NCBI GenBank assembly: GCA_946623825.1
Contig: CAMORN010000001.1
Location: forward strand, 16,202 to 80,201
From: an uncultured Alphaproteobacteria bacterium
GTDB taxonomy: Bacteria > Pseudomonadota > Alphaproteobacteria > Rs-D84
DNA: 64,000 nucleotides
Direction: 5' to 3'
Positions 3,159 through 63,999 of this stretch are shown piece by piece; the first letter of the stretch is position 1; each line of letters begins with the position of its first letter. The notes beneath the pieces were generated by a model that saw only the letters and a list, made by a program, of their open reading frames with translations, did no database searches and was not told the DNA's origin. The translations under genes and the position numbers were made by a program.

Positions 3159-4334
3159 ATGAAACAAAAAATCTTTTTAACCAGTGCACTCGCAATGGGC
3201 TTTGTTGCGCCGGCAATGGCGGAACCAAGTAATACGGGTGATTTTCCATCCACCGGTTTAATGCAGGAAGATTATACATATACCGGTGCGGCAACCGAAG
3301 CAAATATGGGCGTGTACGAGGGGACGGTTAACGCCACCGCAGAATATACAGATGATTTATATAACATCGTCGCGGGAAACTATTTAGAGGCAGGTTCCGA
3401 AGATGAAAACGGAACACAATGTACAGCGGGTAATTTCTGTCCTGGGTTAACAAATGCATTGTATAATGAAACCACAGACCAGGGATTAAATTCATGTTCC
3501 GACGCAACGAACGGAATATACACATTGTCCGCGGCTGGCGCATCATCACAAAACGAATGTTATCGTGAATGTACAACTGCGGATGTTGCACATTCAAGGG
3601 GAACATTAAATGGTGGCTATTATTACGGTGATAGCAACCAATGTGGTGCAACAGATTGTGTTGACGGTTGGCATGTCAAACCAAGTTTAGATTTAGTCAA
3701 TACAATTGGTACGGCCACAGGTGTCAATGCAAGTGTGCTCAATAATGGTAGTGCTACTGATAATATTTCAACGTATGGTTTAACAAGCAGTGATATAGAT
3801 ACATGGGTTGCGGATTTTGGTGAAAAAGGAATTTTAAGAGGAAAATCTTATTGTTCTGCTCTTTCAGGAACCGAGCATCAAACAACCAAAACAACATCAG
3901 AATTAGGTGATTATTCTAATTATAGAAATTGTTGGTGTAATGTAACAAGTTATACACCAGTTAATGGTAATACGCAAAACTTATCTTCACTTTGGGTCTT
4001 GTTTTCAGATTGGGACAATGATGGACCTTACGGTTTAGATTGTGATACTAATTGTGCTTTCGTTTGTGGTATTCAAATGGCTCGTTATCCTAATAATCGT
4101 TCTGCGTTGCTCAATTCTGTTACAGGGTTTCAGCCAGAACCAGCATCATGTGAAGCAAACATTATTAACATTAATTGGTCAAATGCGGATGCGGCGGATA
4201 TATCTGCAAACAACGCGGGTACTGCCACATACGACAGCGATATCCGTACCCCTGTCAAGGCTCAGACCATTAAGGGTAAGACATTCCGCGGTTGGCGTTT
4301 CAGCAAACCGGAACAAACAACAACTGGTAATTAA
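3159..4334 (+). CDS. Secreted Cys-rich surface protein, paralog 1 (conserved ends, variable core, InlB-B-repeat-like tail)
   Basis: Signal peptide (MKQKIFLTSALAMGFVAPAMA); clearly homologous to 58012-59241; C-terminal 'TPVKAQTIKGKTFRGWRF'; CxxxCxxxC motif in the variable core. Confidence 0.85.
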   Translation: MKQKIFLTSALAMGFVAPAMAEPSNTGDFPSTGLMQEDYTYTGAATEANMGVYEGTVNATAEYTDDLYNIVAGNYLEAGSEDENGTQCTAGNFCPGLTNALYNETTDQGLNSCSDATNGIYTLSAAGASSQNECYRECTTADVAHSRGTLNGGYYYGDSNQCGATDCVDGWHVKPSLDLVNTIGTATGVNASVLNNGSATDNISTYGLTSSDIDTWVADFGEKGILRGKSYCSALSGTEHQTTKTTSELGDYSNYRNCWCNVTSYTPVNGNTQNLSSLWVLFSDWDNDGPYGLDCDTNCAFVCGIQMARYPNNRSALLNSVTGFQPEPASCEANIININWSNADAADISANNAGTATYDSDIRTPVKAQTIKGKTFRGWRFSKPEQTTTGN

Positions 4335-6590: not shown

Positions 6591-7724
6591 ATGCTGACTG
6601 ATTTCTTGATTTCACGTGGTTATCAATTTTTTGCAAGTGGATGGACTCAATTTTCTGCTGCGTTCGGTTTGTCGTTTATTATTATGCTGCTTTTTGGAAA
6701 CAGTTTTATTCGTTTGATGCACAAAATTCAAGGTATGGGTCAACCAATCAGTGATAATGTCCCATTGGAACATCAAAAGAAAGCAGGCACACCATCTATG
6801 GGTGGGGTGTTGATGATAATTGCGATATTGGTGTCTTCTTTGTTATTTATGCCAACCCATAATGCAACAGGTTGGATTGCTTTGTCATCTTTGTTAATGT
6901 TTGGGTTAATTGGTTTTGCAGATGATTATAAAAAAATTTCAAGCCAATCTAAAAAGGCGTCAAATGGTTTGTCTCCGTCATTGCGTTTGATATTAGAAGG
7001 TGTATGTGTATTAATTTTGGCTTATTTTATAGATAAAACAATGCCGGGGTATGTCCCAAATTTATCAATCGTATTGGGATCCAGTATTGTTTTACCTTTA
7101 GATTCTTGGGAAATTGGTTATTTGTTTGGTGTGCCATTAACATTGGGATTTTTATATTATGTGTTTGCGTATTTTGTGATTTGTGGTTCTGCAAATGCTG
7201 CAAACATTACAGATGGATTGGACGGTATGTTGTCCAAGATTTATTTACCAGTATTGATTGTTTTGGTTGTTGCGTTGTATGGTGCAACCAGAATTGGTTT
7301 TATGGACGCAGTTATGTTTTTACCAGAAGCAAGCGCACTGTATGCGGTATTGGGCGGGGCGTTCGGCGCAGTACTTGGTTTCTTGTGGTTTAATACAAAA
7401 CCGGCGGCTATATTTATGGGCGATGTGGGTTCACTTGCGCTGGGTGGATTTATGGGTACGGTTGCGATGTTGTTAAAATCTGAAATTATTATGGGTGTAG
7501 CAGCGGGTATGATGGTTTTGATTTTATTGTCTTCTTTCACACAAACAATGTATTTCAAATTAACACGCAAAATATCTGGTACGGGAAAACGCATATTCTT
7601 GCGTGCGCCATTGCATCATCATTTTGAAGAATTGGGTTGGCCTGAAACAAAAATTGTAGATAGATTTTTTGTACTGTCTATCTTGTTTTCTGGGTTGGCG
7701 TTGGTGTTATTGAAATTTGCATAA
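6591..7724 (+). CDS. mraY: Phospho-N-acetylmuramoyl-pentapeptide transferase
   Basis: KAGTPSMGG, ADDYKK, NAANITDGLDG, IFMGDVGS and APLHHHFE motifs. Confidence 0.97.
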   Translation: MLTDFLISRGYQFFASGWTQFSAAFGLSFIIMLLFGNSFIRLMHKIQGMGQPISDNVPLEHQKKAGTPSMGGVLMIIAILVSSLLFMPTHNATGWIALSSLLMFGLIGFADDYKKISSQSKKASNGLSPSLRLILEGVCVLILAYFIDKTMPGYVPNLSIVLGSSIVLPLDSWEIGYLFGVPLTLGFLYYVFAYFVICGSANAANITDGLDGMLSKIYLPVLIVLVVALYGATRIGFMDAVMFLPEASALYAVLGGAFGAVLGFLWFNTKPAAIFMGDVGSLALGGFMGTVAMLLKSEIIMGVAAGMMVLILLSSFTQTMYFKLTRKISGTGKRIFLRAPLHHHFEELGWPETKIVDRFFVLSILFSGLALVLLKFA

Positions 7725-7737
7725 ATGGTGTAAGAAA

Positions 7738-8889
7738 ATGGTAAGAATAACACGTGGTGAAGAAAGTAGACTGACAAATTGGTATTTCAGAACAGACAAA
7801 AAATTAATCAGTCTGTTGGCAATTTTATTGTTGGCCAGTATTATTATGATGCTTTCTGCTGGTTCGGCTGAGGCAAATCGTTTATCGCAACCATGGTATC
7901 ATTTCTTGCAAAAGGCAACACCTTTTTATCTACTTGGTATATTTTCGTTGTTTTTTTGCAGTATGTTAAACAAAAAATGGATATTGTATATAGCTTGGTT
8001 GATGTTTGCGTTTGGTATGGGGTGTATGGTTTTAACTTTGATTCAACATAATGTTATAAACGGCAGTACCAGATGGGTGTTCTTGGGTGGGGTTAGATTT
8101 TTACCTGCGGATGTGTTGAAACCCGCTTTGATTATATTGACCGCATGGTTTATGCAACGATTACAGGGAATTTATGGACAAAATATTTTCTGGAACAAGG
8201 AAGCTTTTAAATTCAGTAAAGACAGTTGGTGGCCATATATAATTGCTTTTATGATATGTTTTGGAATTATGGTTAAACAACCAGATCTTGGAACCGGAAT
8301 TTTATTCGGTGGTGTGGTGTTAATAATGGCTTTGGTCGCTGGTATGCCAATAAAATTATTTGGAATGGTGTGTGCTTTGGGTATAACTGGTGTTTTTGGT
8401 TTCGCAATAGCAACCATGTCTCATATTCAAAATCGTATGGCACAGATTTTTTATGTGCCACCACGAACTCAGGTTTGGTATTCTTTAAATGCAATTCGAC
8501 ATGGCGGGCTTATGGGCAGTGGTGATGAAGCATATGTTCAAGAGGTTTTACCAGAAGCAACAAATGATTTTATCTTTGCTGCTATCGTAGAAAATTGGGG
8601 TGCAATCGCTGCATGTATTTTGATAGCGGTATTATTTGCAATTTTGAAAGTGTTGGTGGAACATGCGATTGTAGCGAAAGATAATTTTGTTATTTATGCA
8701 TTGACGGGAACTGCCGCGTTGTTTTTCGGACAGATTTGTTTTAATTTGATGACTTCTTTGCATATATTTATAAACAAAGGAATGACATTGCCTTTCGTTT
8801 CGTATGGTGGTGGTTCTTTTGTTTCTTTCTGTATATTGTTCGGAATGGTACTTGCGCTGATAAGGGAAGATATTTGGAATAACAGATAA
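7738..8889 (+). CDS. ftsW: SEDS family cell division protein FtsW
   Basis: NGSTRW, KQPDLGT, LPEATNDFIFA and GMTLPFVSYGGGS motifs; lies between mraY and murG. Confidence 0.9.
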   Translation: MVRITRGEESRLTNWYFRTDKKLISLLAILLLASIIMMLSAGSAEANRLSQPWYHFLQKATPFYLLGIFSLFFCSMLNKKWILYIAWLMFAFGMGCMVLTLIQHNVINGSTRWVFLGGVRFLPADVLKPALIILTAWFMQRLQGIYGQNIFWNKEAFKFSKDSWWPYIIAFMICFGIMVKQPDLGTGILFGGVVLIMALVAGMPIKLFGMVCALGITGVFGFAIATMSHIQNRMAQIFYVPPRTQVWYSLNAIRHGGLMGSGDEAYVQEVLPEATNDFIFAAIVENWGAIAACILIAVLFAILKVLVEHAIVAKDNFVIYALTGTAALFFGQICFNLMTSLHIFINKGMTLPFVSYGGGSFVSFCILFGMVLALIREDIWNNR

Positions 8890-58011: not shown

Positions 58012-59241
58012 ATGAAAAATAAAATATTTTTAAGTTCTATGTTGATAATGTCTGTTGCACCGGCAATGGCGGAACCAAGTAATACGGGTGAATTTCCAAC
58101 CGGTGGTTTAATGCAGGAAGATTATACATATACCAATGCCGCAACATCAACCAACATGGACGGCGTATATGAAGGTTCAGTCAACGCCACCGCAGAATAC
58201 GAAGATGTGTTATATCAAATCGCCGCTGGACAATATTTACCGGCGGGCGCGGAATCGCCAATAGATTGTAATGTTGCGGGTTCGTTTTGTGCTGGGGTGC
58301 AAAATGGTGTTTATTATGATGCAAATAATAATCAGGGTTTAACATCATGTTCGGATGCGACAAACGGCGCATATACATTATCCGCCGGAACTGGTGACAG
58401 CGTAAATTCATGTTATCGTGAATGTACAAACGCGGATGTTGCACATTCCAAGGGAACATTAAATGGTGGTTATTATTACGGTGATAATAACCAATGCGAA
58501 CCAACAGACTGTTTTGACGGTTGGCATGTGAAAGCGGGTGTAAACGGTTCCGCAATTGCAACTGCAATTGGTACCGGAGAAGGTGAAAACAGAGCAAGTA
58601 TAAACGGCGCTGGTACATTCAAGCAACAAACATATGGTGGAACCGATCGTGCCCAGGCATTTTATGGCTTAACCGATAACAACACATGGGCGGTATATTA
58701 CGACAGCACCCATGGAATGTTGACAGGACAAGCGCGCTGCAGCACACAAAGTGGTAGCCTAGGAGAAATGTCAAATGGTACATATCCAGATATAACCACA
58801 TTCGCATCTTTAACCGATGAAACTGGACAAGAGGGTGCAAAATATTGTTATTGTAATGTAACCGGATATAAAGATACAAATGGCAACTTGCAAAGCTTGT
58901 CCTCCCCTTGGGTGTTCCGCAGCGACCTCTTCGGCGTGTCGGGTTGCGCGAACAGCTGCGCTGACTACTGTGCGTCTTACATGCGTGGCGCGAACTCGGG
59001 CAACCTCGCGTATCGTGCTGCGGTGTTTGGTTCAATTGAATCAAGTCCAGCCATGTGTGAAGCCAATACAATTACAATTAATTGGTCAAATGCAGATGCG
59101 GCTGATATATCTGCAAACAATGCGGGAACCGCGACATACGGTTCTGACGTTCGTACCCCAGTTAAGGCACAGACAATTAAGGGTAAAACATTCCGTGGTT
59201 GGCGTTTCAGCAAACCACAACAAACAACAACTGGTAATTAA
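58012..59241 (+). CDS. Secreted Cys-rich surface protein, paralog 2; putative DGR target
   Basis: Signal peptide; homologous to 3159-4334 at the N-terminus (through GWHVK) and the C-terminus (CEAN...TTTGN); contains a GC-rich, A-poor internal segment. Confidence 0.87.
   Translation: MKNKIFLSSMLIMSVAPAMAEPSNTGEFPTGGLMQEDYTYTNAATSTNMDGVYEGSVNATAEYEDVLYQIAAGQYLPAGAESPIDCNVAGSFCAGVQNGVYYDANNNQGLTSCSDATNGAYTLSAGTGDSVNSCYRECTNADVAHSKGTLNGGYYYGDNNQCEPTDCFDGWHVKAGVNGSAIATAIGTGEGENRASINGAGTFKQQTYGGTDRAQAFYGLTDNNTWAVYYDSTHGMLTGQARCSTQSGSLGEMSNGTYPDITTFASLTDETGQEGAKYCYCNVTGYKDTNGNLQSLSSPWVFRSDLFGVSGCANSCADYCASYMRGANSGNLAYRAAVFGSIESSPAMCEANTITINWSNADAADISANNAGTATYGSDVRTPVKAQTIKGKTFRGWRFSKPQQTTTGN
58894..59031 (+). 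other. Putative DGR variable region (VR)
   Basis: 46 consecutive codons with no third-position A; 22 end in C. 58901-59030 has 83/130 G+C and 14/130 A. Includes the run cgc-agc-gac-ctc-ttc-ggc. No template repeat seen in the window. Confidence 0.7.
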
Positions 59242-59261
59242 TTTTAATGTTTATAAAAAAA

Positions 59262-59282
59262 AACGCCCGTTTGGGCGTTTTT
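59262..59282. terminator. Intrinsic terminator (family also at 21926-21946 and 26241-26261)
   Basis: aacgccc-gttt-gggcgttttt hairpin. Confidence 0.8.
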
Positions 59283-59625
59283 ATTTTATGTATTTATATA
59301 AATCATCGGGGCGTTGTATAAATATGTTTTTTATGCCACATACATGCTTGGTAAATTGAACACAGGTTAATGATGTTGTTTTTGTTTCTTTTGCGTGTTG
59401 TGGGGCAAATTTAGCGTTATATTGAATAAATTCCCAGCCATGTGCAGATAATATTTTTAAATCACGTCTCGAAAGCTGTATTTGTACAATACGATTTCTT
59501 TTTTCAAATTGATATAAAATAAAACAATCTTTTGTTTCAATCATTGGTGCGCAATGTTTGAAATGTCTGCAAAATATTTTTGCTGATAATTTATGTGAAT
59601 ACATGGAAAAAGCGATATATACCAT
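59281..59625 (-). CDS. Hypothetical protein
   Basis: 114-aa ORF with GAGG RBS upstream; no motif recognised. Confidence 0.5.
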   Translation of the reverse strand: MVYIAFSMYSHKLSAKIFCRHFKHCAPMIETKDCFILYQFEKRNRIVQIQLSRRDLKILSAHGWEFIQYNAKFAPQHAKETKTTSLTCVQFTKHVCGIKNIFIQRPDDLYKYIK

Positions 59626-59679: not shown

Positions 59680-60030
59680 TTATTCTATTGTCCATCCTTT
59701 CTGCAGAGTGTGTTCACCCAATGTTTTCATTGCTGTTTCCCACAGGTGTGCAGATTTATTTTCAGAAAACACATATTGACGTGGTGCATGGCGTTTATCA
59801 CCAAATTTTTTCATTGTTTCAAGTTGTGCTTCGGATAATTTTCCAGACAGATATAATTTCGTAATCAATACTTCTACATCAAGAAGTTCACACGGTCTTT
59901 TTGTAGAAGAATGGTGTCCCCTGAAACCGTTTTGTACAGATTTACAATATAAAAACCAAAACCATAATTGTTCCGCGTTTTGGAATTTTTCTGTGGTGTT
60001 TATATTTTCAGCTTTGACTGTGTTTGTCAT
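59680..60030 (-). CDS. Conserved alphaproteobacterial hypothetical protein
   Basis: 'FQNAEQLWFWF...RPCELLDV...KLY...FG...AP' resembles a family I recall from Rhodospirillales; GGAG RBS. Confidence 0.7.
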   Translation of the reverse strand: MTNTVKAENINTTEKFQNAEQLWFWFLYCKSVQNGFRGHHSSTKRPCELLDVEVLITKLYLSGKLSEAQLETMKKFGDKRHAPRQYVFSENKSAHLWETAMKTLGEHTLQKGWTIE

Positions 60031-60257: not shown

Positions 60258-62678
60258 TTATTGTATTGGTGGGAAACAATCGCCACCGGTATCTGGACAA
60301 CAATTAAATCCGTCTTCGCCCATGTCGGTATATGTTTCGCCCGCACAGCAACCATTTGCATCTGGGGCAGAACCATCATCACAAGTGATTGTTTCTTCTA
60401 TACCAGGTGTATTTGATTCTATTTTTGCGAATGGGTCAACAATTAAACCTTCGTCATCATATGTTAAACCTAAAATATCTGTATTATAGGCTTTTGTTTG
60501 TTCATCACTTCTGGTGCCGTCACCCGCGCCATATTTGTTAGTGAATTGTTGTTGTGTTTGTGCACTGAAAACCTCATTCTTTTTGTTATTGATAGCTTGG
60601 TAATTTTGTGATTCACAGAATGCAAGAACACTTCTGTAATCTTGTCCTGAATTACCGTTTCTCCATTTTTCTTCATCAATTGTCCATTTACCGTTTTTCT
60701 GGGTACAATAATTTTCCATATTAAATGAACGAACCTGACCAATCCAAGAAGAATCGGATTTGTTTATTGAAACCTTGCCTTTCAATGTTTCCCATGAACG
60801 ACGTTGGTTATCAGAATATGCATGGAAAGCACATTTGCGTTTATCACCAGATTTATCACCACATGTTGCAATCAAATCAACCGGTGAAAATACATTGATA
60901 CGTGTACCGGCTGCAATTGAAAATGGTGGTGTTGTATTATCCAATGCATCAACCAATAATTTTTGAGCAACCTTGTTCCAAGTGCTGATTAATTCTTGTT
61001 TTGCCATTTCAGATGAACGCATTGTTCCAGATTGAACAATTGTGTTATTATCCAAATCTATTTGATTTACAACCGTGTCTGCAATTGGCGCAATCATATT
61101 TACAGCGGCAGGAACCATAGCGGTCAAAATAGGCATAACCATTTGTTCCACATAATCGGTGCTGCCATGACCCGGAACACCAACACGACCCTGAGCATCA
61201 CCAGAATAAGGGTCTTGACCGTCTGTAAAATTAAATTCAACGCCATCTGGTCTGATGAATTGATACCATTTAATATTCATACGGCCATATGTTTGATATG
61301 GGCCTGGTAAATCACCTTCGAGATAACCCATTAACAAAGTACCTGTTGGAATAATGATTGTGCGTCCATTGTCCGAATAAACATTTCTATCAACTGTTGC
61401 ACGAACAGGTATGCTGTGGTTTTTTGAACTGTCGCATTGTCCATTTGATGTGGCTTTGCAACCATAAACACTTGGGTCTGCGCGAACTTCTGAAACGATT
61501 GTTGCAGGAATAGGTTTAAATTGACGCAATATAAATGTTCTGTCGTATGGACGTGATGAATATACAGATTCAGCCTTACCGCTACCCATTAAAGCATCTT
61601 CATCATCTTTTTTCTGCCATTTTTCATAGTTAGCAGCAAAATCAGGATTTGAAAAACGTTGCATACCATTTCCTTGAGCGGTTCCTTCTGTATCCCATAC
61701 AGCATTTTCAAATGTTCCGTCCGATGCAACCGTTGCAGATGATTTTGGTGATGACAGAGATGGCATTTTTACATTTCTGTTTTTTATACCACGATAACCA
61801 ATGTGTTCAGCATCTGTACCCATTTTAGAACCATCTTCAAGTGATGTGATTATACCGGTTGCAAAATCATATTTACCAGTTGGATTGGAACAATCTTTGT
61901 CAGAAAATGGATGAAAATAATTTGCACCACGTTCTGGCTTTATCCAACCGATTTGTTTCCCAGAAACATCGTAACCCGCAATTGCGAATTCAGAACATTT
62001 TTCAGATGGTAAAATAATTTCTGGTTCTGGTTCAAAAATATTTGTTGGTGCAATTGTTGAAATTGCTTCTTCTATTTTTTCTTTTACTGGTTCTGGTTCA
62101 ACAATTGGTTCTGGTTCCGGTTCTACAACAGGTTCTGGTTCAATAATTGGTTCTGGTTCCGGTTCCACAACAGGTTCTGGTTTAGGTTCTTCCTTGGCAG
62201 AATAGGAAACAGAAACGGTTTCAGTTTGCGAGATATCTTCTTGGTCTTCGCTGTACCATGTTATAGTAAGTTTTGCATTCGCAGTTTTTTGAACAGATTT
62301 TGGTTTGTATATAACATTAACAATACAAGATTCCGTTAAATCTGCACAATCATTTGTAGTTGTAAAATCTGAAATTTCAAGTCCATCATTTGATAAAACT
62401 TTTATATCTTGCACAACAACAGGTGCATTAACAGAAATATTTAATGTTTGATTATCACTTTGTCCAACAAAAATATCTGTAAATTCAATTGATTCAGGTT
62501 CTATATCAAAAGTTATTTGTTGGTTTGCTTCTGAAACAGTTGTGTTGTTTGATTTTTTTCCTATTACTAATGTCAGTAATATTATAACAACAACAAAAGC
62601 AGCACCCAACAACAACCATTGTAAATATTTTGGTGTTGTAGAACGAAAATCTAAAATCTGTTGTTTAATGTTTTTCAT
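60258..62678 (-). CDS. VirB10/TrbI-like T4SS core protein with extra Ig-like and Cys-rich domains
   Basis: N-terminal TM segment, Pro/Glu linker and TrbI core ('PIPATIVSEV', 'IIIPTGTLLMG', 'W..FIRPDG', 'DAQGRVGVPG', 'IAAGTRINVF'). Confidence 0.85.
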   Translation of the reverse strand: MKNIKQQILDFRSTTPKYLQWLLLGAAFVVVIILLTLVIGKKSNNTTVSEANQQITFDIEPESIEFTDIFVGQSDNQTLNISVNAPVVVQDIKVLSNDGLEISDFTTTNDCADLTESCIVNVIYKPKSVQKTANAKLTITWYSEDQEDISQTETVSVSYSAKEEPKPEPVVEPEPEPIIEPEPVVEPEPEPIVEPEPVKEKIEEAISTIAPTNIFEPEPEIILPSEKCSEFAIAGYDVSGKQIGWIKPERGANYFHPFSDKDCSNPTGKYDFATGIITSLEDGSKMGTDAEHIGYRGIKNRNVKMPSLSSPKSSATVASDGTFENAVWDTEGTAQGNGMQRFSNPDFAANYEKWQKKDDEDALMGSGKAESVYSSRPYDRTFILRQFKPIPATIVSEVRADPSVYGCKATSNGQCDSSKNHSIPVRATVDRNVYSDNGRTIIIPTGTLLMGYLEGDLPGPYQTYGRMNIKWYQFIRPDGVEFNFTDGQDPYSGDAQGRVGVPGHGSTDYVEQMVMPILTAMVPAAVNMIAPIADTVVNQIDLDNNTIVQSGTMRSSEMAKQELISTWNKVAQKLLVDALDNTTPPFSIAAGTRINVFSPVDLIATCGDKSGDKRKCAFHAYSDNQRRSWETLKGKVSINKSDSSWIGQVRSFNMENYCTQKNGKWTIDEEKWRNGNSGQDYRSVLAFCESQNYQAINNKKNEVFSAQTQQQFTNKYGAGDGTRSDEQTKAYNTDILGLTYDDEGLIVDPFAKIESNTPGIEETITCDDGSAPDANGCCAGETYTDMGEDGFNCCPDTGGDCFPPIQ
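62089..62181. repeat. 42-bp tandem repeat (about 2.2 copies) encoding the EPEP linker
   Basis: 62089-62130 and 62131-62172 differ at 2 positions; a partial third copy follows. Confidence 0.85.
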
Positions 62679-62681
62679 TTT

Positions 62682-63999
62682 TTACTGTATTCTTACTACG
62701 TGGCAACTTGTTCCGCTGAATTTTAATAATTGATCACACAATTTTTGTGCTGTATCTATATCAGATAAAGGACCAATTCTTAAACGATACAAACGTGCAG
62801 TTGCAGATGCTGCGCCTAAATCACCGACACCCTGTTCATCGACAGCAAAAAATACACTGTTTTTATATGGTGTTAATAAACCGACGCCATCATCACCACT
62901 GAATTTTGCCAACAAATCTGTCCAGTAATCATTCAAGGCTTTAACCGAAGTATCGGATTTTAATTCGATTGCAACACCTGTTTGATTGCTTGGGATAAGT
63001 GGTATATTTGTTTGTGGTAAATAAGAACCAGCAGTAACACGTTCTGTTGGCATCATAACAACACCACCAGTACCAACTGAATTTGTATTATAACCAATTT
63101 GTTGATTATTCATATACATTGGTGTTGTTGTATAATTGTTCACAGAAGCATCCATTGCATATTGTTCATTCATATATGCAACATTGTTTAATGATTGGTT
63201 TGACATCATAGATTGTGCAACATTTGCCTCTGCCAATGCCATAACAGATGCAGTATCTGCAATCAAGAATGGTTTTTCACGTTTTTTGATACAAACAATT
63301 CTTTGACCGCTGCGCAATACCATATCACCAACAGCTTCTACAATTAATAAACGACCATCTTCACCATCTGTGCGGAAACCAACAGGGCTTTCGCCACCTT
63401 CGACCAATAATGATACAACCGGACGTTGTGTCATAGAAATAACTTTGTCGCCAAAATCGATGTATGTAAATATTCTGTCGCGCCATACGCGTTCAGGTGC
63501 GATAACATAATCATCTGGATTTGGAACAAATATATCTAAATCAAAACGGAATTCAGATGGGTCAATTTTCATTGTTTTTATCCAACCATAATCTTCGCCA
63601 TCAACACCGATAACTGAATTTGATTTTGCTTGTTTTTTGAATATAGAACCCATAGATGCAGGGGCAGCAGCAGTGTTTGTTGCGCCAGCAACCGCACCAC
63701 CATTACCCAATGTTATGTCAACCTGAGAATAAGAAATTTCACTTGAATTGATAGGGTAAGCGCGTAAATAGAATATGTATTTATTACCAGATTGTCCAGT
63801 TACAATCATATTTGTATCATTTCCATTGTTCCCAGATTCAGGCGTGATGTACATTGTCTGACCGCCTGGTTCTGCGTCAACAGTGAACAAACCTGCATTA
63901 CCAACAACAACATCTGCAATTTTTTCACCCATTGGCAATGTAACCAATGTTGCCATACCTGCACGTGTTTTTATTGGCAGTACGGTGCCGGTACTCCAT
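62682..63999 (-). CDS. VirB9/TrbG-like T4SS core protein with C-terminal SPOR-like domain (5' end outside the window)
   Basis: Frame stays open to the window edge (WSTGTVLPIKTRAGMATL). 'DTNMIV...Y.FYL' and 'IAPERVWRDRIFTYIDF' resemble CagX/VirB9; the end 'YRLRIGPLSDIDTAQKLCDQL' is SPOR-like. Confidence 0.82.
   Translation of the reverse strand, partial: WSTGTVLPIKTRAGMATLVTLPMGEKIADVVVGNAGLFTVDAEPGGQTMYITPESGNNGNDTNMIVTGQSGNKYIFYLRAYPINSSEISYSQVDITLGNGGAVAGATNTAAAPASMGSIFKKQAKSNSVIGVDGEDYGWIKTMKIDPSEFRFDLDIFVPNPDDYVIAPERVWRDRIFTYIDFGDKVISMTQRPVVSLLVEGGESPVGFRTDGEDGRLLIVEAVGDMVLRSGQRIVCIKKREKPFLIADTASVMALAEANVAQSMMSNQSLNNVAYMNEQYAMDASVNNYTTTPMYMNNQQIGYNTNSVGTGGVVMMPTERVTAGSYLPQTNIPLIPSNQTGVAIELKSDTSVKALNDYWTDLLAKFSGDDGVGLLTPYKNSVFFAVDEQGVGDLGAASATARLYRLRIGPLSDIDTAQKLCDQLLKFSGTSCHVVRIQ

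Follow-up and report, generated by a model that had tools for sequence, protein, structure and literature searches.

A GC-rich, adenine-poor patch in a secreted-protein gene of an uncultured alphaproteobacterium is very probably a variable region written by a diversity-generating retroelement

Background

How did a 138-nt patch that is rich in GC and poor in adenine come to lie inside an AT-rich gene for a secreted protein, and where is the element that would have written it? The patch stands at positions 58894-59031 of the window, i.e., the whole stretch of 64,000 nt analysed here, which comes from an uncultured Alphaproteobacteria bacterium of the rumen and corresponds to C1:16202-80201 of the source assembly (G000; 933 kb in 16 contigs, 35% GC and an estimated completeness of ~ 76%). 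From the letters of the window alone, it had been read as a variable region (VR) of a diversity-generating retroelement (DGR), rewritten from a template repeat (TR) located elsewhere in the genome. Using paralogs in the same assembly, DGR cassettes in related genomes, structure modelling and the literature, we come to the same view of its origin: the stretch 58894-59031 is very probably a VR written by a DGR.

Results

The gene that carries the patch encodes a 409-aa protein for which Pfam and NCBIfam searches returned no match. The features that matter first are as follows.

58012..59241, + strand: target gene, 409-aa secreted protein with the N-terminal signal peptide MKNKIFLSSMLIMSVAPAMA
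58894..59031, + strand: VR, the stretch homologous to the TRs of relatives, GC-rich and A-poor, in frame with the gene 58012-59241
58918..59004, + strand: mutagenised core (codons 303-331), with 18 codons opposite AAC, AAT, GAC, ACG or ATG of the L034-type TR (L034 is a locus of a relative, see below)
59005..59031, + strand: 3′ invariant scaffold CTCGCGTATCGTGCTGCGGTGTTTGGT (LAYRAAVFG), which equals the unmutated 3′ end of the relatives' TRs and starts a block resembling an initiation of mutagenic homing (IMH) sequence

Recounting the letters upheld nearly all of what the original prediction had drawn from them. Indeed, the 138 nt contain 10.9% A (~ 11% predicted) and 62.3% GC (slightly off the predicted ~ 64%), none of the 46 codons ends in A (third positions: C 22, G 13, T 11, A 0), the run of six NNC codons (CGC AGC GAC CTC TTC GGC) is present as described, and the VR, whose peptide reads ...SPWVFRSDLFGVSGCANSCADYCASYMRGANSGNLAYRAAVFG, finishes 207 nt (69 codons) before the stop, where ~ 210 bp (~ 70 codons) had been given. 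The rest of the gene has 124 A-ending codons out of 364 (34%), against which the 0/46 of the VR has P = 4.8e-9, and GC along the gene reaches 0.59 at 58870-59009 versus 0.41–0.47 in the adjacent intervals. When the whole assembly was scanned (931,198 windows of 138 nt), a GC content of at least 0.60 combined with A or T of at most 0.12 was found in three regions, namely the VR 58894-59031 and the homologous patches in two paralogs. The GC-rich, A-poor patch is real and far beyond chance. Inside its core, the unvarying scaffold consists of Cys312, Cys316 and Cys320 together with the adjoining GCG/GCT alanine codons 313, 317 and 321.

The target gene belongs to a family with at least 13 paralogs in G000 (tblastn), in which a conserved N-terminal region and a variable middle are followed by a block CYC...W-V...CxxxCxxxC...R, the long paralogs additionally sharing a C-terminal domain CEAN.I.INW...GWRFS. 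Four of the 13 (the window gene, C2_52281, C2_123226 and C15_3359) bear the patch: GC at third codon positions (GC3) of the homologous segment is 0.76–0.78 in these four versus 0.09–0.31 in the other nine, and each of the four has 0–3 A-ending codons there. The four patches have in common the A-free scaffold CCTTGGGTG.TC ... TG[CT] ... TGC ... TGT ... TCG ... CTCGCGT..CGTGCTGCG.TGTT.GG, and the sequence between the scaffold positions differs from one to the next. In their alignment, A occupies 2 of the 69 invariant columns (3%), as compared with 34–36% of the invariant columns of the flanks, and the 69 variable columns (50%) use all four bases. Nearly A-free invariant columns together with four-base variable columns form the pattern expected if every template adenine had been randomised, and the scaffold codons that had been picked out as A-free in a single gene thereby proved to be so across four.

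The relatives that hold DGR cassettes are rumen and gut Alphaproteobacteria of 'Candidatus Enterousia' (L numbers denote loci and G numbers genomes), in which a reverse transcriptase (RT) open reading frame (ORF) of 336–380 aa is present in ~ 10 of 36 congeners. In the five congener cassettes compared (L017-L021), TR/VR mismatches fall mostly on TR adenines (13/15 in L017, 13/14 in L018, 15/16 in L019, 16/18 in L020 and 21/21 in L021). The targets of L019 (G009) and L021 (G034), 458 and 459 aa long, are members of the same protein family and have their VR 185–210 nt before the stop, so that an internal VR is native to functional-looking cassettes; the position that had seemed atypical in the window gene is therefore genuine and common to cassette-adjacent targets of congeners. 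The targets of L017 and L020 are 150-aa proteins made solely of the VR-bearing module, which is thus diversified at its C-terminus in the customary way. Further loci came from pattern scans of public genomes and metagenomes and from look-ups of RT homologs: L032 in the buffalo metagenome-assembled genome RGIG7797, and L034/L035, metagenome contigs with ~ 88% nucleotide identity to G000 around secG-rnc-lepB. All show the gene order target, TR, 108-aa ORF and RT (341/342 aa).

The L034/L035 TR, CCTTGGGTGTTCAACAACGACAACGGCGACGCGTCTAATTGCGCGAACAACTGCGCTAACAACTGTGCGAACAACATGCGTAACACGAACTCGAACAACCTCGCGTTTCGTGCTGCG, contains verbatim the template that the original prediction had foreseen, TGGGTGTTC(AAC)n...TGCGCGAACAACTGCGCTAACAACTGTGCG, and lies beside an accessory gene and a DGR-type RT. 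Over 138 aligned nt, the window VR differs from the L034 TR at 19 of 32 adenines and at 9 of 106 other bases, compared to 13 A and two non-A mismatches between L034's own VR and the same TR. Several of the nine non-A differences are at positions that vary as well among the remaining VRs of G000 and of its closest congener G001, and these probably reflect divergence of the cognate TR; those private to the window VR number about 3 at most. The relatives' RT carries the motifs IGNLTSQ and YCDD and can be aligned from end to end with PDB 8ub7_A (E = 1.7e-48), as compared with ~ 1e-17 for the RTs of group II introns and retrons; we take 8ub7_A to be the Bordetella DGR RT (bRT). Two further elements accompany these TRs.

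L032 1233-1559, L019 7165-7491, L017 6963-7289, L034 2432-2758: conserved 108-aa ORF (MTIDDIKKLD...VVKIDKYYSFS) between TR and RT, in every Enterousia-type cassette
L034 about 2190-2260, also L019, L021 and L032 directly after the TR: conserved post-TR segment

Searches with the 108-aa ORF against Pfam, NCBIfam and PDB sequences returned nothing, and as it shows no detectable similarity to Avd either, it is a candidate non-Avd accessory protein. The post-TR segment, found in all cassettes, reads AAAAGTTTTGCCAACCTGTGGGACAAAGTGT.CA.ACACTTTTCAGATGTG with a small hairpin AAAGTGT...ACACTTT; by analogy with the priming spacer RNA of Bordetella phage BPP-1, which is placed alike, it probably represents the spacer within the DGR RNA. 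Note that L018 (G013:C3) represents a different DGR type (TR 6918-7030, VR 8584-8696), whose VR, in a protein of 669 aa, is of the rare kind that lies near the N-terminus (about aa 65–102). RGIG7797 also holds a remote VR (L040, G061:C9:23582-23698) with a scaffold that fits the G009-type TR and not its own L032 TR. VRs without a cognate TR are a recurrent feature of this clade.

On the target side, the patch is in frame, has an A-free scaffold and NNC-type variable codons without stops, and its TR homolog lies beside a DGR RT. The scaffold shared by four paralogs, the A-biased mismatches to the L034 TR and the congener cassettes all bear out the reading of the patch as a DGR VR.

Downstream of the core, two coding features close the gene.

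59032..59064, + strand: coding 3′ flank TCAATTGAATCAAGTCCAGCCATGTGTGAAGCC, conserved at the nucleotide level among VR-bearing paralogs of G000 and G001
59056..59238, + strand: additional C-terminal domain, CEANTITINW...GKTFRGWRFSKP, which every long paralog has in conserved form

The unmutated 3′ block CTCGCGT..CGTGCTGCG.TGTT.GG is present at the end of the window VR, and the coding flank 59032..59064 is a candidate IMH on sequence grounds. This AT-richer conserved coding flank marks the VRs of G000, G001 and G212. Cassette-adjacent VRs (L034, L019, L025 and the VR at the L032 start) are followed by a GC-rich hairpin, GTTGGCGCCTCGCCGGCG, and those of congeners run about 12 nt longer (GTTGGC) than the G000 VRs. 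A palindrome at 59031-59040, TTCAATTGAA, was considered as a DGR cruciform; it is weak, AT-rich and partially conserved among VRs, and we do not claim it as such. The VR is 'internal' because the VR module, which also exists as a stand-alone protein of 150 aa, carries an appended C-terminal domain. A likeness of this domain to the Listeria-Bacteroides repeat (Flg_new) was considered too; Pfam gave no match at E <= 1, and the likeness is likewise not claimed.

The module itself was modelled with AlphaFold2.

58543..59046, + strand: VR-bearing module (aa 178-345), which in the AlphaFold2 model consists of a beta sheet and then a hairpin of two helices

The mean predicted local distance difference test score (pLDDT) of the whole protein, modelled with 79 homologs, is 80, with residues 178-345 at 92–97, and the isolated module reaches a pLDDT of 95 and a predicted template modelling score (pTM) of 0.90. 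In the model, the VR forms a strand (300-305), a helix (309-325), an inter-helix loop and a second helix (329-340), and the AAC/AAT codons of the TR map to residues 303, 304, 306, 311, 314/315, 318/319, 322/323, 326, 328 and 330/331. In the first helix, the variable positions (311, 314/315, 318/319 and 322/323) are spaced i, i+3, i+4, i+7 and so fall on one helix face, which the model suggests is surface-exposed; Cys312, Cys316 and Cys320 lie on the opposite face. Cys243, 279, 281, 316 and 320 are invariant among the 79 homologs, with Cys312 nearly so, and these cysteines would brace the module through disulfides.

Foldseek searches with the module gave a best E of 0.31 (TM <= 0.28) against the PDB and of 0.44 against BFVD, and a profile search of PDB sequences gave 0 matches. 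A C-type lectin, an FGE-sulfatase-like or an Ig fold, or any Pfam domain, was thus supported by none of the Pfam, NCBIfam, Foldseek and PDB profile searches, and the modelled module provisionally has no known fold within the PDB and BFVD. The CxxxCxxxC motif that had been described as unlike a lectin is in fact a conserved family scaffold, and its domain is not recognisably a C-type lectin.

The window contains further features around the VR gene or related to it.

3159..4334, + strand: second paralog in the window, 391 aa, with an AT-rich VR-homologous segment (GC 0.38, GC3 0.26) in which W-V and CxxxCxxxC are kept
59255..59288, + strand: hairpin followed by a T-run, ACGCCCGTTTGGGCGTTTTT, 3′ of the stop codon

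The second paralog is not a current VR, its segment being either a long-decayed VR or a never-targeted copy. The hairpin and T-run, read by eye, look like an intrinsic terminator. Downstream of the VR gene lie two small ORFs without a Pfam match (59281-59625 and 59680-60030, both − strand), followed on the − strand by 60258-62678 and 62682-63956, whose translations we take to be type IV secretion VirB10/TrbI and VirB9 from their appearance; upstream, on the + strand, are ORFs that resemble genes for LspA, YidC and a transporter of the Kef type. Between these neighbouring ORFs and the VR gene, no functional link was seen. Elsewhere in the family, the sole five differences in 4.7 kb between G000 and L026 (AUXO014117975.1), a metagenome contig of the same strain, fall within 66 nt (C2:123565-123630) of the N-terminal region of a paralog, a cluster that points to conversion between paralogous genes or to a mixed assembly.

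Discussion

The course of events that we propose is drawn by analogy with characterised DGRs and with the congener cassettes, its homing step included. A bRT-like RT, together with an accessory protein of small size, would copy a TR-containing RNA into cDNA with any base inserted opposite template adenines, and this mutated cDNA would replace the VR. With an AAC-rich TR, about 18 codons (303-331) would turn into NNC-type codons without stops around a fixed A-free scaffold (PWVF, Cys312/316/320 with the neighbouring Ala codons, and LAxRAAVFG), and the theoretical repertoire of an L034-type TR amounts to about 6e18 peptides. Since the patch is found in four assembled paralogs, with a fifth probably lying in an assembly gap of G000, such an element would diversify a dispersed family of secreted proteins. 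The dispersal that had been suggested is thus seen in the assembly itself, while action in trans on remote targets in this genome is what we infer.

A GC3 of 0.76, the lack of third-position A in a genome of 35% GC and the few private non-A changes argue for recent writing. On this point the earlier reading of recent activity holds, with almost no AT-decay and about 3 private non-A changes, and the DGR may still be active in this strain. Clearly decayed patches on this scaffold, which resemble stages midway in the decay of a VR and show what becomes of one once it is abandoned, occur in G001 (L053, G001:C8:18169-18197 region; GC 0.41, A 0.26) and in G212 (L047, G212:C4:36048-36076 region; GC 0.49, A 0.24), both of which retain the scaffold and the CGTGCTGCG..GG 3′ block. 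In addition, within the syntenic pair formed by G000 C2_52281 and the gene on G001 C4, the core is 63% identical versus 79–83% in the rest of the gene, and it is GC-rich in both.

A number of results weigh against a cassette still at work in this genome. In G000, with its assembly of ~ 76% completeness, a PF00078 search for a DGR-clade RT gave 0 matches at E <= 1, tblastn with the RT (five RTs) and accessory proteins of congeners came back empty, and a blastn search for a TR (word size 7, relaxed scoring, predicted-TR query) found the four VRs and nothing more, as did a scan with the invariant scaffold, in which the next best place scored 49/98. The absence of RT, Avd and TR noted for the 64 kb accordingly holds for the window and for the whole assembly. 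The closest congener, G001 (89% complete), likewise has no RT, accessory gene or TR, and a TR with the G000-type 3′ flank was sought in 257 congeneric genomes, where VR-type matches alone appeared (G000, G001 and G212). No cognate TR emerged from pattern scans of public genomes and metagenomes, which did yield further VRs, AUXO contigs of the same strain and the TR of L032. The cassette sites of relatives, upstream of a DUF378 gene (L032) and beside secG-rnc-lepB (L034/L035/L037), are both contiguous and empty in G000. Moreover, the G000 VRs lack the GC-rich hairpin and have the conserved AT-richer coding CAATTGAATCAAGTCCAGCC in its place (downstream inverted repeats are found in 34% of DGRs only; PMC5758913), and two same-strain AUXO metagenome contigs (100% and 99.9% identical), possibly from the same sample, have identical VRs.

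A single TR for all four VRs had to be rejected as well, as 50% of the columns vary and A-mutagenesis alone is insufficient. The C15 VR fits the L032-type TR better than the L034-type (17 vs 25 non-A mismatches), and at least two TR types, L034-like and L032-like, seem to be needed for the four VRs of G000. Their cognate TR is predicted to have the form CCTTGGGTGTTC(AAC)n...CTCGCGT..CGTGCTGCG..., running on into CAATTGAATCAAGTCC or a variant. VR lengths of 141 nt (one in G000) and 147 nt (one in G001) can be accounted for by indels opposite AAC codons, which are known from PMC5758913. Beside secG, at G000 C3:73245-73420, two near-identical terminator-like hairpins stand ~ 130 nt apart (AAAAACACCCAC..TGTGGGTGTTTTTT), which may be the scar of a cassette loss or exchange.

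These results count in favour of an alternative that we take seriously and place somewhat short of an even chance, also when a DGR origin is granted: a DGR wrote the patch, the cassette was lost recently, and the four VRs are now ordinary coding sequence starting AT decay. The missing RT, accessory gene and TR in G000 and G001, G212 with a VR-type patch only, the empty cassette sites, the missing hairpin, the need for at least two TR types and the identical VRs of the AUXO contigs (perhaps from one sample) all agree with it, and the non-A differences from the nearest TR are mostly GC to AT (6/9). Rewriting does get lost in this clade, as seen from the decayed patches of G001 and G212, and orphaning occurs there too, RGIG7797 having a VR of a TR type that it does not encode. 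However, GC3 is still 0.76, no codon ends in A and the private non-A changes number about 3, so any loss must have been very recent. The ~ 76% complete assembly also breaks exactly at this gene family: several G000 contigs end within family genes, and the gap that separates the starts of G000 contigs C2 and C14 is exactly where the VR gene L051 of G001 maps. Finally, DGR cassettes of this clade often land in short, unbinned contigs, many of the closest RT homologs being on contigs of 1.4–6 kb. Given a DGR origin, we therefore lean, with modest confidence, towards a cassette that is present in the real genome and was missed by assembly or binning. A more specific proposal, which we put forward tentatively and consider rather unlikely as a whole, is that this unseen cassette, whether on a separate mobile replicon or hidden in an assembly gap, serves the VRs of G000, G001 and G212 through the AT-rich coding IMH CAATTGAATCAAGTCCAGCC, acting in trans at five or more dispersed internal sites on a non-lectin, Cys-laddered helical-hairpin scaffold, with a non-Avd 108-aa helper.

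Two explanations do without reverse transcription altogether. One of them, a GC-rich segment that is foreign or gene-converted and stems either from a donor of high GC content or from a paralog, would account for the sharp local GC jump inside an AT-rich gene and would suit a recombinogenic family, in which the five AUXO/C2 mismatches lie within 66 nt. Yet it is very improbable: the invariant columns are nearly A-free while the variable ones use four bases, the patch is limited to the same 138 nt in four paralogs, no GC-rich donor copy exists in the genome, and in relatives the homologous TR, which has AAC precisely at those codons that vary, adjoins an RT. Even less credible is selection on the mRNA or protein (a structured RNA, or codon usage for the Cys-rich motif) as the cause of the GC-rich, A-poor composition. 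The motif is indeed conserved across the family, but in nine paralogs the same scaffold is spelled in ordinary AT-rich codons, and selection would not leave the inter-scaffold residues hypervariable while barring A at the third position.

The reading of the patch as a DGR VR can be set against known systems. The mechanism would be the classical one of DGRs, for which targets that are remote or multiple, internal VRs and indels opposite AAC codons are all already known. With Bordetella phage BPP-1 (mtd VR, avd, TR and brt), the system shares the A-to-N rewriting of a VR from an AAC-rich TR, the A-free scaffold and the unmutated 3′ block; in relatives, it also shares an RT that is a full-length homolog of 8ub7_A and a conserved RNA segment downstream of the TR. 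Unlike BPP-1, the target domain is not a C-type lectin and the VR is followed by 69 more codons, the 108-aa accessory protein of the relatives is without Avd similarity, and this genome has neither an adjacent cassette nor a GC-rich inverted repeat after the VR.

The Treponema denticola DGR serves TvpA and up to seven remote targets, and in cellular DGRs the distance from RT to target can exceed 100 kb (Wu et al. 2018, PMC5758913). As in such remote-target DGRs, one element would here serve several dispersed paralogous surface or secreted proteins, whereas Treponema has lipoproteins of the C-type lectin class as targets and carries RT and TR in its genome; in the present case, the cassette is absent from the assembly and the four VRs seem to need at least two TR types. 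Internal VRs are also documented, e.g., in 9 of 34 'Ig1' DGRs, in which the IMH then overlaps coding sequence (Wu et al. 2018, PMC5758913), and Roux et al. 2021 reassign the Ig cases to a VR domain that is uncharacterised and not Ig (PMC8144416). In both the 'Ig1' DGRs and the window gene the VR is not C-terminal and the IMH must be coding, but the VR classes differ, the fold here being a different, Cys-laddered one. The closest likeness is with the Enterousia-type cassettes (L019 in G009, L021 in G034, L032 in RGIG7797 and L034/L035), which have the same target family, VR position and scaffold (WVF...C...C...C...FRxA) and a homologous TR; they differ in that their VR adjoins the cassette and is followed by the GC-rich hairpin, in contrast to the AT-richer coding flank of the G000, G001 and G212 VRs. 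A full-text literature search found no paper linking DGRs with Enterousia.

Conclusions

Three things are unusual in this system: the fold that bears the VR, the accessory protein of 108 aa in the relatives and, in this sub-lineage, a 3′ flank that is both coding and AT-rich. According to large surveys, the annotated VR regions of DGRs are systematically C-type lectin folds at protein C-termini, and remote targets escape cassette-centred searches (Roux et al. 2021, PMC8144416). As the present case shows, orphan VRs that are overlooked by cassette-based pipelines can be detected from composition alone. Here, the VR would lie on a helix face braced by three cysteines, with a further domain behind it, in several paralogs of a ~ 1 Mb genome. 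If confirmed, this would be a second natural scaffold tolerating massive variation, relevant both to DGR biology and to protein-display engineering. It would also mean that rumen and gut Alphaproteobacteria with tiny genomes invest in hypervariable secreted proteins, which presumably bind host, phage or other microbial surfaces.

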